Shown here in pieces: positions 34,629-64,000 of a DNA stretch of 64,000 nt. Position 1 is the first letter of the stretch; each line of letters opens with the position of its first letter. Source of the DNA: Enterobacteria phage vB_EcoM_IME340. The DNA lies in the sequence record MH051916. One strand, 5' to 3'. The notes under the pieces were generated by a model that saw only the letters and a list, made by a program, of their open reading frames with translations, did no database searches and was not told where the DNA came from. The translations under genes and the position numbers were made by a program.

Positions 34629-34701
34629 TGGGAATTAGCCAAGTTGGTAAGGCACTGGATTTTGATTCCAGGATGCAAAGGTTCGAGTCCTTTATTCCCA
34701 G
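34629..34701 (+). tRNA. tRNA-Gln (anticodon UUG)
   Basis: Cloverleaf folded by hand: acceptor tgggaat/attccca, anticodon loop ttTTGat, T-arm aaagg-ttcgagt-ccttt. Confidence 0.85.
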
Positions 34702-34702
34702 C

Positions 34703-34789
34703 GCGAGAATGGTCAAATTGGTAAAGGCACAGCACTTAAAATGCTGCGGAATGATTTCCTTGTGGGTTCGAGTCCCACTTCTCGCACCA
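34703..34789 (+). tRNA. tRNA-Leu (anticodon UAA), class II, encoded CCA
   Basis: Acceptor gcgagaa/ttctcgc, anticodon loop ctTAAaa, long variable arm, T-loop gttcgag, ends ACCA. Confidence 0.85.
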
Positions 34790-34794
34790 AATTT

Positions 34795-34868
<74 letters not shown>

Positions 34869-34878
34869 ATTTAATTTA

Positions 34879-34952
34879 CTCCGTGTAGCTCAGTTTGGTA
34901 GAGCGTCTGCTTTGGGAGCAGAATGTCGCAGGTTCAAATCCTGCCGCGGAGA
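34879..34952 (+). tRNA. tRNA-Pro (anticodon UGG)
   Basis: Acceptor ctccgtg/cgcggag, D-arm gctc-agtttggtag-agc, anticodon loop ttTGGga, T-arm gcagg-ttcaaat-cctgc. Confidence 0.85.
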
Positions 34953-34954
34953 CT

Positions 34955-35044
34955 GGAGGCGTGGCAGAGTGGTTTAATGCACCGGTCTTGAAAACCGGCA
35001 GTCGCTCCGGCGACTCATAGGTTCAAATCCTATCGCCTCCGCCA
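34955..35044 (+). tRNA. tRNA-Ser (anticodon UGA), class II
   Basis: Acceptor ggaggcg/cgcctcc, anticodon loop ctTGAaa, long variable arm, T-loop ttcaaat, encoded CCA. Confidence 0.85.
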
Positions 35045-35049
35045 GTTTT

Positions 35050-35125
35050 GCTGATTTAGCTCAGTAGGTAGAGCACCTCACTTGTAATGAGGACGTCGGC
35101 GGTTCGATTCCGTCAATCAGCACCA
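35050..35125 (+). tRNA. tRNA-Thr (anticodon UGU)
   Basis: Acceptor gctgatt/aatcagc, anticodon loop ctTGTaa, T-loop ttcgatt, encoded CCA. Confidence 0.85.
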
Positions 35126-35126
35126 A

Positions 35127-35201
35127 GGCCCTGTAGCTGGAAGGTTCAAGCAAGCGACTCATAATCGCCAGATGGTGGTTCAATTCCACCCAGGGCCACC
35201 A
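35127..35201 (+). tRNA. tRNA-Ile (anticodon CAU, presumably lysidine-modified to read AUA)
   Basis: Acceptor ggccctg/cagggcc, anticodon loop ctCATaa, T-arm ggtgg-ttcaatt-ccacc, encoded CCA; T4 tRNA-Ile is known to carry a CAU-derived anticodon. Confidence 0.75.
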
Positions 35202-35210
35202 AATTAATTT

Positions 35211-35297
35211 GGGGAGTTATCCCGTAGAGGTAGCGGTGTGGACTGTAAATTCATTGTCATTGCGACTCGGGTGGTTCGACTCCATCACTCCCCACCA
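35211..35297 (+). tRNA. Class II tRNA-like gene, probable tRNA-Tyr (anticodon GUA)
   Basis: Acceptor ggggagt/actcccc, anticodon arm gtgga-ctGTAaa-ttcat (two G-U pairs), long variable arm, T-arm ggtgg-ttcgact-ccatc, encoded CCA; D-stem has a mismatch. Confidence 0.55.
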
Positions 35298-35301
35298 ATT
35301 T

Positions 35302-35376
35302 GGATGTGTAGCTCAATGGCAGAGCGATCGCCTGTTAAGCGATTGGTTATAGGTTCGAATCCTATCACGTCCGCCA
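35302..35376 (+). tRNA. tRNA-Asn (anticodon GUU)
   Basis: Acceptor ggatgtg/cacgtcc, D-arm gctc-aatggca-gagc, anticodon arm atcgc-ctGTTaa-gcgat, T-arm atagg-ttcgaat-cctat, encoded CCA. Confidence 0.8.
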
Positions 35377-35380
35377 AATC

Positions 35381-35456
35381 CGAGGCATAGCTCAGAAGGA
35401 AGAGCAAGGACCTTCTAAGTCCTAGGTCGTAGGTTCGATCCCTACTGCCTCGACCA
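35381..35456 (+). tRNA. tRNA-Arg (anticodon UCU)
   Basis: Acceptor cgaggca/tgcctcg, D-arm gctc-agaagga-agagc, anticodon loop ctTCTaa, T-arm gtagg-ttcgatc-cctac, encoded CCA. Confidence 0.8.
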
Positions 35457-42517: not shown

Positions 42518-42694
42518 TAAGGCCGATACTTAGGCCTATTTACATTCAAATAACATGGGAACAACCTGGACCTCATGATTCTATGAGGGATTCCCGCCAA
42601 CCTGTAATAAGGTCGAGCCCAAGTGCGGTAATGGGTAAATACAGAAATGGACAATTCACGCGCCATGGAATGGCCCAAATTTAGAGAGAATAAA

Positions 42695-43237
42695 ATGAGA
42701 ACATTTTTAACTGGTCCTTATCTATCCCTGATGAATGCTTTTACACACCATTCTGATGCTAGAGTAGAAGAAATTTGTAATAGTGGATTTTATGTACCTG
42801 ATTCGCCACATTTATTTAAAGAATACTGCACACTTCGATTAGATGGTGGACGTCAATCCGGTAAATCAACTGCAGTAACTAATTTTGCCGCTAATTGGTT
42901 GTATGACGGTGGAACAGTTATTGTTCTTTCTAATACTTCAGCTTACGCTAAAATTTCTGCGGGCCACATTAAAAAAGAATTTTCACGCTATTCTAATGAT
43001 GATATTCGATTCCGTTTATTTACTGATTCTGTCCGTAGTTTTGTTGGTAATAGAGGTAGCAAGTTCAGAGGTTTATCGCTTTCGCGGATTTTGTATATAA
43101 TCGATGAGCCTGTTAAATCTCCTGATATGGATAAAATTTACGATATTCATATTGAAACTGTGCAATACTGCTGCAATAGTAAATGTTGCATTGGTGGTAT
43201 TACTCGTCCACAGTTTTTCGTAATTGGAATGCAATGA
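42695..43237 (+). CDS. P-loop NTPase
   Basis: Walker A GGRQSGKST and Walker B-like ILYIIDEP; start placed at MRTFLTG with gagagaataaaATG (track ORF began 16 codons upstream). Confidence 0.6.
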   Translation: MRTFLTGPYLSLMNAFTHHSDARVEEICNSGFYVPDSPHLFKEYCTLRLDGGRQSGKSTAVTNFAANWLYDGGTVIVLSNTSAYAKISAGHIKKEFSRYSNDDIRFRLFTDSVRSFVGNRGSKFRGLSLSRILYIIDEPVKSPDMDKIYDIHIETVQYCCNSKCCIGGITRPQFFVIGMQ

Positions 43238-43563
43238 TGACAGATACGCAACTTTTCGAATATCTTTATTTTTCGCCAAAAACTATTAAAAATAAATTGG
43301 TGAATCATTTTGAAATTTTGGCAAATAACAACGTCTTGAGCGAATTTTATCCTAAGCAATACAAATTACAAAAAGGCGTATTCAAAGGATGCAGAGTTTT
43401 GTGTACTGCTCCTAATGCAAGATTAATGAATAAAATTCCATATTTTACCATGGAATTTATTGATGGACCTTTTAAAGGACTAATCACCCAAAGTTTAATG
43501 GCATATGATTCTGAGCCATTTTTAATTAAAGAACAATCTTGGATAAATTTATTTTCTAATTGA
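43234..43563 (+). CDS. Hypothetical protein
   Basis: 109 aa from ATG overlapping the previous stop (ATGATGA). Confidence 0.5.
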   Translation: MMTDTQLFEYLYFSPKTIKNKLVNHFEILANNNVLSEFYPKQYKLQKGVFKGCRVLCTAPNARLMNKIPYFTMEFIDGPFKGLITQSLMAYDSEPFLIKEQSWINLFSN

Positions 43564-43569
43564 GGTTAT

Positions 43570-43932
43570 ATGAAAGCATATCAAATTCTTGAAGGCACGC
43601 ATAAAGGTACTATTTATTTTGAAGATGGTATTCAAGCACGAATTATTGTCTCTAAAACTTTTAAAGATGACTCTTTTGTAGACCCAGAAATTTTCTATGG
43701 TTTGCATGCCCGTGAAATTGAAATTGAAACACAACCTACAGTTAAAATTGAAGGTGGTCAACACCTGAACGTTAACGTTCTGCGTCGTGAAACTCTGGAA
43801 GATGCAGTTAAGCATCCGGAAAAATATCCGCAGCTGACCATCCGTGTATCCGGATATGCAGTTCGCTTTAACTCTCTGACTCCGGAACAGCAACGCGACG
43901 TTATTGCTCGTACCTTTACTGAGAGTTTGTAA
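43570..43932 (+). CDS. Autonomous glycyl-radical cofactor, GrcA/YfiD-like (T4 Y06I family)
   Basis: 120 aa; C-terminal [24 protein letters not shown] glycyl-radical motif. Confidence 0.85.
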
Positions 43933-44153
43933 TGGCAAAGATAATTATTGAAGGTTCTGAAGATGTGCTAAATGCTTTCGCCGAGTGGTTTAGTAATTCA
44001 GGCGAACAGCAATTTAATGAAGCGTGGAACATGGGTGATATTAGTGGAATTTATCCTACGACAGAAATTTCTGTTCAAGGATATGGAATTCATGAACCTA
44101 TTCGTTTAGTTGAATATGATTTGGGAACAGGTGAGGAAGTAAAATATGATTGA
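43932..44153 (+). CDS. Hypothetical protein
   Basis: 73 aa ORF, start overlaps the preceding stop. Confidence 0.5.
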   Translation: MAKIIIEGSEDVLNAFAEWFSNSGEQQFNEAWNMGDISGIYPTTEISVQGYGIHEPIRLVEYDLGTGEEVKYD

Positions 44154-52776: not shown

Positions 52777-52802
52777 GGGAGCCTTCGGGCTCCCTTTTTT
52801 AT
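52777..52802 (+). terminator. Rho-independent terminator
   Basis: gggagcc-ttcg-ggctccc hairpin followed by tttttt. Confidence 0.75.
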
Positions 52803-52825
52803 TTCAAAATTTTTTTCACAAAACG

Positions 52826-52855
52826 GTTTACAAGCATAAAGCTTTATGGTACTAT
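52826..52855 (+). promoter_or_regulatory. T4 early promoter with UP element
   Basis: aaaatttttttcacaaaacgGTTTACa, 18 bp spacer, tggTACTATacaactatcaact, then ggagaataaaATG. Confidence 0.65.
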
Positions 52856-61407: not shown

Positions 61408-61881
61408 ATGTTATTGACTGGCAAATTATACAAAGAAGAAAAACAGAAATTTTATGATGCACAAAACGGTAAATGCTTAATTTGCCAACGAGAATTAAAT
61501 CCTGATGTTCAAGCTAATCACCTTGACCATGACCATGAATTAAATGGACCGAAAGCTGGAAAGGTACGTGGATTGCTTTGTAATCTATGCAATGCTGCGG
61601 AAGGTCAAATGAAGCATAAATTTAATCGTTCTGGCTTAAAGGGACAAGGTGTTGATTATCTTGAATGGTTAGAAAATTTACTTACTTATTTAAAATCCGA
61701 TTACACCCAAAATAATATTCACCCTAACTTTGTTGGAGATAAATCAAAGGAATTTTCTCGTTTAGGAAAAGAGGAAATGATGGCTGAGATGCTTCAAAGA
61801 GGATTTGAATATAATGAATCTGACACTAAAACACAATTAATAGCTTCATTTAAGAAGCAGCTTAGAAAGAGTTTAAAATGA
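61408..61881 (+). CDS. 49: Endonuclease VII (Holliday junction resolvase) gp49
   Basis: 157 aa; MLLTGKLYKEEKQKFYDAQNGKCLICQREL...HLDHDHELNGPKAGKVRGLLCNLCN zinc/His-Cys motif, matching recalled T4 endo VII. Confidence 0.93.
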   Translation: MLLTGKLYKEEKQKFYDAQNGKCLICQRELNPDVQANHLDHDHELNGPKAGKVRGLLCNLCNAAEGQMKHKFNRSGLKGQGVDYLEWLENLLTYLKSDYTQNNIHPNFVGDKSKEFSRLGKEEMMAEMLQRGFEYNESDTKTQLIASFKKQLRKSLK

Positions 61882-63695
61882 CAATTGAAAAAGAAATTGA
61901 AGGATTAATTCATAAAACTAATAAAGACCTTTTAAACGAGAATGCTAATAAAGATTCTCGTGTTTTTCCAACTCAACGGGACCTTATGGCTGGTATTGTG
62001 TCTAAACACATTGCCAAAAATATGGTCCCGTCTTTTATTATGAAAGCGCATGAAAGCGGAATTATCCATTTCCATGATATTGATTATTCTCCTGCTCTTC
62101 CATTTACTAATTGCTGTTTAGTAGATTTAAAAGGAATGCTTGAGAACGGATTTAAGCTCGGTAATGCACAGATTGAAACTCCTAAATCAATTGGCGTTGC
62201 TACTGCAATTATGGCACAAATTACTGCACAGGTTGCTTCTCATCAATATGGCGGAACGACTTTTGCGAATGTAGATAAAGTCCTTTCTCCTTATGTTAAA
62301 CGCACCTATGCAAAACATATTGAGGACGCGGAAAAATGGCAAATCGCTGATGCATTGAATTATGCCCAATCTAAAACAGAAAAAGACGTATACGATGCAT
62401 TCCAAGCTTATGAATATGAAGTAAATACTCTCTTTAGTTCAAACGGACAAACGCCCTTTGTAACAATTACATTTGGCACGGGAACTGACTGGACCGAACG
62501 AATGATTCAGAAAGCAATTCTGAAAAATCGTATTAAAGGTCTTGGTCGTGATGGGATAACTCCTATTTTCCCTAAACTTGTCATGTTCGTTGAAGAAGGT
62601 GTTAATCTTTATAAAGACGATCCGAATTATGATATTAAGCAGCTTGCTTTAGAGTGCGCAAGCAAAAGAATGTATCCTGACATCATTTCGGCTAAGAACA
62701 ATAAAGCTATCACCGGTTCATCTATTCCTGTTTCTCCAATGGGTTGCCGTAGTTTCTTGGGCGTATGGAAAGATTCGACTGGTAATGAAATTCTTGATGG
62801 ACGTAATAATCTTGGTGTTGTAACACTGAATCTTCCTCGCATTGCGCTAGATTCTTATATTGGAACACAGTTCAATGAACAGAAATTTGCCGAATTGTTC
62901 AATGAGCGAATGGATTTATGTTTTGAAGCATTGATGTGTAGAATTAGTTCCTTAAAAGGAGTTAAAGCTACTGTTGCTCCTATTCTTTACCAAGAAGGTG
63001 CATTCGGGGTTCGTCTTAAACCTGATGACGATATAATTGAGTTATTTAAAAACGGTAGAAGTTCAGTGTCCTTAGGATACATTGGTATTCACGAATTGAA
63101 TATTCTTGTCGGTCGTGATATTGGACAAGAAATTTTAACTAAAATGAATGCTCATCTTAAGCAGTGGACTGAAAGAACTGGTTTTGCTTTTAGCTTGTAT
63201 TCTACTCCTGCTGAAAACCTGTGCTATCGCTTCTGTAAACTTGATACCGAAAAATATGGAAGTGTAAAAGATGTTACCGATAAAGGCTGGTACACTAACA
63301 GTTTCCATGTTTCAGTAGAAGAAAATATTACTCCGTTTGAAAAGATTTCTCGCGAAGCCCCATATCATTTCATCGCGACAGGCGGTCACATTTCTTATGT
63401 TGAACTTCCTGATATGAAAAATAACCTAAAAGGCCTTGAGGCTGTATGGGATTATGCTGCACAACATTTAGATTATTTTGGCGTTAATATGCCAGTAGAT
63501 AAATGTTTTACGTGTGGAAGTACCCATGAAATGACTCCTACTGAAAACGGATTTGTTTGTTCTATTTGTGGAGAAACTGATCCTAAAAAGATGAACACAA
63601 TAAGAAGAACATGTGGCTATTTGGGAAATCCGAATGAACGCGGATTTAATCTTGGCAAAAATAAAGAAATCATGCATAGGGTTAAACACCAATGA
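61878..63695 (+). CDS. nrdD: Anaerobic ribonucleoside-triphosphate reductase NrdD
   Basis: 605 aa uninterrupted; C-terminal zinc ribbon CFTCGSTHEM...CSICGE and glycyl-radical motif RRTCGYLG. Confidence 0.95.
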   Translation: MTIEKEIEGLIHKTNKDLLNENANKDSRVFPTQRDLMAGIVSKHIAKNMVPSFIMKAHESGIIHFHDIDYSPALPFTNCCLVDLKGMLENGFKLGNAQIETPKSIGVATAIMAQITAQVASHQYGGTTFANVDKVLSPYVKRTYAKHIEDAEKWQIADALNYAQSKTEKDVYDAFQAYEYEVNTLFSSNGQTPFVTITFGTGTDWTERMIQKAILKNRIKGLGRDGITPIFPKLVMFVEEGVNLYKDDPNYDIKQLALECASKRMYPDIISAKNNKAITGSSIPVSPMGCRSFLGVWKDSTGNEILDGRNNLGVVTLNLPRIALDSYIGTQFNEQKFAELFNERMDLCFEALMCRISSLKGVKATVAPILYQEGAFGVRLKPDDDIIELFKNGRSSVSLGYIGIHELNILVGRDIGQEILTKMNAHLKQWTERTGFAFSLYSTPAENLCYRFCKLDTEKYGSVKDVTDKGWYTNSFHVSVEENITPFEKISREAPYHFIATGGHISYVELPDMKNNLKGLEAVWDYAAQHLDYFGVNMPVDKCFTCGSTHEMTPTENGFVCSICGETDPKKMNTIRRTCGYLGNPNERGFNLGKNKEIMHRVKHQ

Positions 63696-64000
63696 ATTAC
63701 GATAGATTTTATCCCTGCGATTTTGTGAATGGCCCTGGATGCAGGGTCGTTCTTTTCGTTACAGGTTGTTTGCATAAATGTGAAGGGTGTTATAATAAAT
63801 CAACATGGAATGCTAGAAATGGCGTTCCATTCACTGGTGAAACACTAGAACAATTAATTGAATGTTTGAATAATGATTATATAGAAGGATTAACTATAAC
63901 TGGAGGAGACCCTCTTTATCCTGATAACCGAGATGATGTTCATTGCATTGTTCAAACGGTAAAAAATCTTTATCCGAATAAAAGCATTTGGTTGTGGACA
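63692..64000 (+). CDS. nrdG: Anaerobic RNR activating enzyme NrdG (radical SAM), truncated by window end
   Basis: Start overlaps nrdD stop; CLHKCEGCYN radical-SAM CxxxCxxC cluster motif; ORF runs to window end. Confidence 0.88.
   Translation, partial: MNYDRFYPCDFVNGPGCRVVLFVTGCLHKCEGCYNKSTWNARNGVPFTGETLEQLIECLNNDYIEGLTITGGDPLYPDNRDDVHCIVQTVKNLYPNKSIWLWT

Follow-up and report, generated by a model that had tools for sequence, protein, structure and literature searches.

Two spare-part proteins have been validated biochemically so far, according to PMC8683613: YfiD (GrcA) of Escherichia coli and the Y06I protein of phage T4. With reference to Wagner et al. 2001, both are described there as ~14-kDa proteins that restore pyruvate formate-lyase (PFL) after cleavage by O2, once a glycyl radical has been installed on them by the PFL activase (PFL-AE). 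In YfiD, the N-terminal half is reported to give way to the structured radical domain at residue 60/61; residues 61–127 duplicate residues 693–759 of PFL, while residues 1–60, which are disordered in solution by NMR, are important for binding to cleaved PFL and for radical installation (PMC8683613). On the phage side, the T4 gene vs.6 is listed as UniProt P13316; its RNA belongs to the early class, and the protein, which was detected during infection, to the middle class (PMC9697503, supplementary files 4 and 6). It was present in all six T4-like genomes compared by Nolan et al. 2006 (PMC1524935).

How does the locus under study compare? The window is a 64,000-nt stretch of Enterobacteria phage vB_EcoM_IME340 (MH051916), a Tequatrovirus whose identity to vB_EcoM-UFV13 and similar phages is about 96% across 20 kb. 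In the ORF listing, an ATG-initiated reading frame of 120 codons plus stop occupies 43570–43932 on the + strand. A GAGG Shine-Dalgarno sequence, read from the sequence at 43562–43565 (+), lies 4 nt 5′ of the ATG and overlaps the TGA stop of vs.7. At the other end, the TAA stop at 43930–43932 overlaps the ATG of vs.5 at 43932 (ORF 43932–44153, +). Scanning the surroundings of the gene for promoters and terminators gave signals at background level only. Judged by sequence and gene order, the gene at 43570–43932 is the ortholog of T4 vs.6. The two proteins are 98.3% identical, and the T4 gene has the same length, the same neighbors and the same mosaic relationship to E. coli grcA; it differs from the window copy in two N-terminal substitutions (D33E and T54P) and at gene positions 285 and 336, where the window has the other E. 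coli grcA allele. In nucleotide sequence, the window gene is 98.6% identical to many T4-type (Tequatrovirus) genomes, and matches of high DNA identity extend over at least 80% of its length in 717 phage records. The order vs.8-vs.7-vs.6-vs.5-vs.4-vs.3-regB is common to the window and RB51, where the RefSeq name of the gene is GrcA, and its placement between vs.7 and vs.5, upstream of regB, is also kept in Mosig-, Jiaoda- and Karamvirus. The match to PHROG 1209 is full length (E 1.5e-62), residues 1–120 aligning with profile positions 1–121 of 121. By the UniProt entry name of P13316, T4 vs.6 is the protein known as Y06I. Consistent with this, the T4 genome records contain a single match to the window protein. 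The claim that the gene encodes a YfiD/GrcA-type spare part of the kind described for T4 Y06I thus finds support both in the 98.3% orthology and in what PMC8683613 relates of Wagner et al. 2001.

The naming of this family in databases is uneven. PHROGs v4 labels PHROG 1209 as being of “unknown function” despite the 2001 biochemistry on its T4 member, and GenBank names for vs.6 include “hypothetical protein,” “pyruvate formate-lyase,” “glycerol dehydratase radical” and “2-ketobutyrate formate-lyase.” The contig that encodes an NCBI protein called “GrcA [Escherichia coli]” is 167,969 bp long and evidently belongs to a T4-like phage, which makes the label unreliable. Since the family is widespread and yet of “unknown function” in PHROGs, its annotation could be improved.

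The domain evidence leads, well outside the range of chance, to the same family as YfiD (TIGR04365/IPR011140). The original prediction, of a 120-aa product with a glycyl-radical signature, was borne out by a match to the Pfam Gly_radical domain (PF01228) at residues 60–101 (E 2.2e-18; 67.1 bits against a cut-off of 22.2) and to the YfiD NMR structure 6OWR (E 1e-41). The string that it quoted as the C-terminus does occur in the protein, but the chain actually ends in ARTFTESL. Alignment to E. coli GrcA and to the C-terminus of PflB had been proposed as a check and went in favor of the assignment: residues 61–120 of vs.6 are identical to GrcA 68–127 at 60 of 60 positions, PFL residues 697–759 are matched without gaps over 63 residues (E 5e-26), and the radical loop is conserved. 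The predicted radical glycine is Gly95, the G of RVSGYAV (codon at 43852–43854, +), which corresponds to GrcA Gly102 and PflB Gly734 in the alignments to 6OWR and PFL. It is invariant in 85 homologs, and all 40 family-invariant residues are kept in vs.6. Like vs.6, E. coli GrcA (YfiD, 6OWR) is a stand-alone protein of about 14 kDa, although its 5′ half lacks the phage codon usage seen in vs.6. PflB, whose C-terminal radical domain (697–759) has the same radical loop, carries in addition a 690-residue catalytic barrel that is missing from vs.6. In both the NCBIfam and the PDB rankings, GrcA comes first and formate acetyltransferase is placed before the other glycyl-radical families, with NrdD in neither list. 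The protein has no match to the NRDD model, and its radical loop reads RVSGYAV rather than RRTCGY.

The N-terminal half is another matter. The first 58 or so residues are probably the phage lineage's own form of the N-terminal half of GrcA, with 12 of 39 residues (about 31%) identical to E. coli GrcA, 7 residues fewer and DNA similarity at background; the positions common to the 85 homologs are Q5, I6, R24, K29, D34 and P56. Because this half has diverged, the score on the GrcA equivalog model (NCBIfam TIGR04365) is only 154.5 bits, below the cut-off of 170, with the match covering residues 20–120 only; E. coli GrcA scores 234 bits on the same model. Since the cut-off is missed, the gene is filed as an ortholog of T4 vs.6 rather than as a GrcA equivalog, that is, as a phage branch of the GrcA family predicted to work like GrcA. 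The short forms GrcA2 and GrcA3 (NCBIfam NF008341 and NF038360) have the C-terminal radical domain in common with vs.6, but their models are about 80 positions long and align to its C-terminal 60 residues only; the scores are 93 and 106 bits, where 145 and 158 would be required.

An AlphaFold2 (AF2) run with an 85-sequence alignment predicts that residues 1–50 of vs.6 form a small β-rich domain (pLDDT about 92), followed by a low-confidence linker at residues 57–69 and then by the expected strand-loop-strand-helix radical domain. An equivalent N-terminal β-rich domain is predicted by AF2 for Salmonella GrcA; it would therefore be a feature of the family and not a phage novelty. The predicted fold is at odds with the disorder seen by NMR in YfiD, and may be one that is adopted on binding.

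Taken with the in vitro activity reported for the T4 protein, the identity, synteny and domain content found here make it very likely that vs.6 is an autonomous glycyl-radical cofactor, with the predicted role of a spare part for host PflB. On this model, oxygen would destroy the Gly734 radical of PflB and cut the chain at that point, and the C-terminal domain of vs.6 would take the place of the lost piece, whereupon the host radical-SAM activase PflA would install a radical on Gly95. The restored PFL would again convert pyruvate to acetyl-CoA, yielding ATP via acetate, and formate. What the phage would presumably gain is sustained energy and formate when it infects under micro-aerobic or anaerobic conditions; formate is, in addition, the reductant of the phage NrdD. 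An infection phenotype for a vs.6 mutant did not turn up in the literature search.

The gene and its function were thus already known, and to find it in a T4-type phage is no surprise; what the original prediction overlooked is that the 3′ half of the gene is host DNA almost to the letter. From 43748 to 43925 (+), a 178-nt tract encoding the glycyl-radical domain (GrcA residues 68–127) is 98.9% identical to E. coli grcA, with two mismatches and an exact run of 145 nt at 43748–43892. T4 vs.6 has an exact run of 178 nt with the grcA allele of E. coli SK1144, the sole differences between its 3′ half and that allele being two bases in the last two sense codons. The transition is abrupt. Over codons 61–120, the gene agrees with E. 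coli grcA at 176 of 180 nt, compared with 58 of 117 nt in the alignable part of codons 22–60 (Fisher p 2e-24), and no DNA relatedness to the E. coli grcA sequence is seen 5′ of 43748 or 3′ of 43925, including past the stop. The AT-rich, phage-type 5′ half (43570–43747, +; codons 1–59, comprising the diverged N-terminal domain and linker) has about 50% nucleotide identity to E. coli grcA in its alignable part and a GC3 of 0.15; GC3 is 0.41 in the tail, close to the 0.43 of the E. coli grcA tail. The left junction falls at codon 60/61, equivalent to GrcA residue 67/68 and a few residues inside the structured domain. The mosaic marks the GrcA domain boundary in the DNA itself. The right junction is located just 5′ of the vs.6 stop codon, where the sequence is again of phage type (43926–43934, +; ending TTTGTAATG, with mismatches at 43926 and 43927 and the overlap of the vs.6 stop with the vs.5 start).

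Which host gene supplied this DNA? pflB encodes the same domain, but as a DNA donor it was rejected: it is only about 80% identical over the tract, compared to about 98% for grcA, and grcA is therefore the donor. When the whole 64-kb window was compared by megablast with 5,426 complete E. coli genomes, the vs.6 tract was the sole stretch shared with the species, and it matched every one of the 5,426. The same comparison brought up a 53-nt segment at 52792–52844 that is 96% identical to an unannotated site in one of the 5,426 genomes (BE104). In this mosaic, recombination of a virulent T-even phage with the chromosome of its host has left a clean natural trace, and the 64 kb contain no other. 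A literature search found no paper describing either the mosaic or the tracking of the host by this gene, Wagner et al. 2001 and the T4 genome review lying beyond its reach. The host-identical 3′ half may accordingly be an unreported evolutionary addition to a gene whose identity it leaves unchanged.

Such a degree of identity to host DNA is unusual, and could in principle reflect an error of assembly or contamination, although nothing beyond the identity itself speaks for this. The mosaic is found in hundreds of independently sequenced genomes, including the T4 sequence X04567 from the 1980s, as well as in IMG/VR contigs, and in all records the junctions preserve the reading frame and have the same position. 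An artefact is thus vanishingly improbable.

The direction of transfer can be read from the two halves of the gene. Over the 60 codons of the tail, dS between phage and E. coli is 0.10 and dN is 0; for comparison, bacterial grcA tails diverge in step with their species, dS being 1.0 between E. coli and Salmonella and 0.64 between E. coli and a Klebsiella MAG. The heads are related among phages, with DNA identities of 89% to Mosigvirus and 73–75% to Jiaoda-, Karam- and Winklervirus, and have evolved under purifying selection (dN/dS about 0.2 among phages). With heads that are related between phages and a tail that is near to E. coli, vs.6 is therefore an old phage gene with a recent host tail.

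A second case is provided by the Klebsiella phage Shinkou, a Jiaodavirus, in which GC3 is 0.19 in the head and 0.60 in the tail. The identity of this tail to K. pneumoniae grcA is 93.2%, and its first 119 nt contain one mismatch. The probable donor is judged from a single K. pneumoniae sequence (CP125156.1), while the recorded host of Shinkou is K. aerogenes. At the 19 tail sites that separate the grcA genes of E. coli and K. pneumoniae, the window, T4 and one Mosigvirus have the E. coli state at 19 of 19 and a second Mosigvirus at 18; Shinkou has the Klebsiella state at 16 of the 19, the first 16 consecutively. Against bacterial references from 80 species, among them neither K. pneumoniae nor K. 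aerogenes, the best identity of the Jiaodavirus tail was only 88.7%. The reference CP125156.1, a 5.37-Mb K. pneumoniae chromosome, is listed as a plasmid in PLSDB. In all likelihood, then, the 3′ half of vs.6 is a gene-conversion tract from the host chromosome within an older phage homolog, and there have been at least two independent host-to-phage conversions. Each of these would have come from the host genus of the phage itself and would have used a common left junction.

There is a hint of a further exchange as well. At gene positions 285 and 336 (43854 and 43905), A and T are found in the window alone among 11 T4/Mosig-type vs.6 sequences, and these are exactly the two sites in the tract that separate UMNK88-type from SK1144-type alleles of E. 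coli grcA. This is suggestive, but only suggestive, of a further conversion event in the window’s own lineage. A plausible mechanism is offered by the biology of T4, in which a patch of homology could let degraded host DNA recombine with the genome of the phage. Intragenic recombination between phage and host has been described for host-derived metabolic genes of cyanophages, such as psbA. There, too, a host protein subject to damage and turnover in infection has a copy in a virulent phage, and patches of the gene are exchanged with the copy of the host. In vs.6, on the other hand, the exchange comprises one sharply bounded domain, with identity reaching 100% over 178 nt, and the protein is a repair part, not the enzyme itself.

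Not all phages follow this pattern. The tails of Karam- and Winklervirus are AT-rich and about 70–78% identical to bacterial grcA tails, and look like the unconverted state; those of Slopek- and Pseudotevenvirus are intermediate. In the T5-like and jumbo-phage homologs, no recent host identity was found in the tail. Host tracking was consequently rejected as a general rule, since tails in several phages are 70–85% identical to any bacterial grcA without a preference for their own host. This group includes Citrobacter phage CfP1, Kosakonia phage Kc304, Karamvirus, Slopekvirus, T5-like and jumbo phages and the RB49-like E. coli phage vB_Eco_SAP.

Why would a phage replace one half of its gene with that of its host? 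In the most far-reaching reading, vs.6 is a chimera that tracks its host: the old N-terminal adaptor is kept, and the plug domain is repeatedly overwritten by the grcA of the current host, with selection keeping the plug matched to host PflB and PflA and thereby securing ATP and a supply of formate to the phage NrdD. This is possible, but can be proposed only tentatively. The protein of the tail is almost invariant, so conversion alters two residues at most between the E. coli and Klebsiella types, and Karam-, Winkler- and T5-like phages and vB_Eco_SAP retain the gene with tails that are only about 70–80% identical to bacterial grcA. The host-like 3′ half might then be a passive by-product of recombination at a patch of homology, conferring no advantage of host matching, in a gene that may itself be dispensable. 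That explanation is rather unlikely, though worth serious consideration. It addresses the origin of the tract and not the function of the protein, and is in that respect compatible with the role of a spare part for PFL; moreover, the two residues that do differ between the hosts (LEDAVKH in E. coli, LLDAVEH in Klebsiella) follow the host in the phages examined.

The mosaic bears on the sign of the interaction with PFL as well. A protein with a host-identical plug and a phage-specific N-terminal half, kept under purifying selection and corresponding to the part that governs binding and activation in YfiD, could act as a decoy that mimics the radical domain of the host, titrating PflA or occupying PflB so as to shut down or redirect fermentation. 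Both activation and blockade are compatible with the computations presented here. An inhibitor, however, would have no need of the radical glycine or of the 40 family-invariant residues, all of which vs.6 retains, and the T4 protein is reported to restore PFL activity, as related in PMC8683613. There is thus only a slim chance that vs.6 is a decoy, and the repair of host PFL is the preferred function.

If PFL is repaired, what is gained by the phage? The original prediction linked the gene to nrdD and nrdG at 61878–64000 and to their RRTCGYLG motif, and both genes are indeed there, so that the pairing with vs.6 in the window is real. nrdD (61878–63695, +) encodes an anaerobic (class III) ribonucleotide reductase of 605 aa, with matches to Pfam NRDD (E 8e-171) and Gly_radical and with RRTCGYLG near its end. 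It is followed by nrdG (63692–64000, +), encoding the radical-SAM activase of NrdD, of which only the 5′ part is included before the window ends (Fer4_12, E 3e-31; Radical_SAM, E 3e-7). The nrdD gene is uninterrupted in the window; in some close relatives, the tblastn match is split by a homing endonuclease, an insertion that is absent here. The reductant of class III ribonucleotide reductases is formate (PMC4493059), making NrdD a possible consumer of the formate produced by PFL.

Homologs of vs.6 occur in 1,590 of 50,697 phage records, among T4-like, T5-like, jumbo and Aeromonas phages, and NrdD occurs in 2,921 phage records. In every grcA-bearing lineage inspected, nrdD is present as well: T4-like, T5-like (with slur09 in both lists), jumbo and Aeromonas. 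The homolog is found between or beside nrdD and nrdG in jumbo enterobacterial phages (Salmonella phage PHA46, Yersinia phage fHe-Yen9-04 and relatives) and in some Aeromonas phages (PX29 and relatives). An operon with nrdDG was rejected as a general rule, as adjacency is seen in only 5 of 80 IMG/VR loci. In T4-like and T5-like phages, over 10 kb separate the vs.6 homolog from nrdD, and clustering is limited to those 5 of 80 loci; the link through formate is therefore circumstantial. It is nevertheless reasonable to suppose that the phage may protect PFL for energy and for the delivery of formate to its own NrdD.

The adjacency seen in PHA46, fHe-Yen9-04 and PX29 would also be in keeping with the idea that vs.6 served the anaerobic ribonucleotide reductase of the phage directly, as a spare radical part for NrdD or as a substrate of NrdG, and not PFL at all. 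A role in nucleotide metabolism was in fact guessed by Nolan et al. 2006 (PMC1524935) from the shared Gly_radical domain. However, the C-terminal 60 residues of vs.6 are those of GrcA and are close to PflB 697–759, including RVSGYAVRF, and NrdD is absent from the NCBIfam and PDB rankings. Since the sequence of the radical loop in NrdD is different (RRTCGYLG), direct repair of NrdD by vs.6 is unlikely; in addition, the T4 protein is reported in PMC8683613 to work with PFL and PFL-AE. A direct function in the reductase is accordingly very improbable, and vs.6 would more plausibly serve NrdD at one remove, through PFL.

Some other features of the window deserve mention. Upstream in the same gene series, vs.8 (42647–43237) encodes a protein of 196 aa with a weak match to the ATPase region of the large terminase (phrog_2, E 3.7e-6) and a P-loop-like motif, GGRQSGKST. 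Ten tRNA genes, for Gln, Leu, Gly, Pro, Ser, Thr, Met(CAT), Tyr, Asn and Arg, are found at 34629–35456. From about 35046 onward, the region of the tRNA cluster is 80–90% identical to some 240 records of non-mobilizable plasmids, mostly from E. coli, the best match being a 137.5-kb E. coli “plasmid.” These records may be genomes of phages or phage-plasmids.
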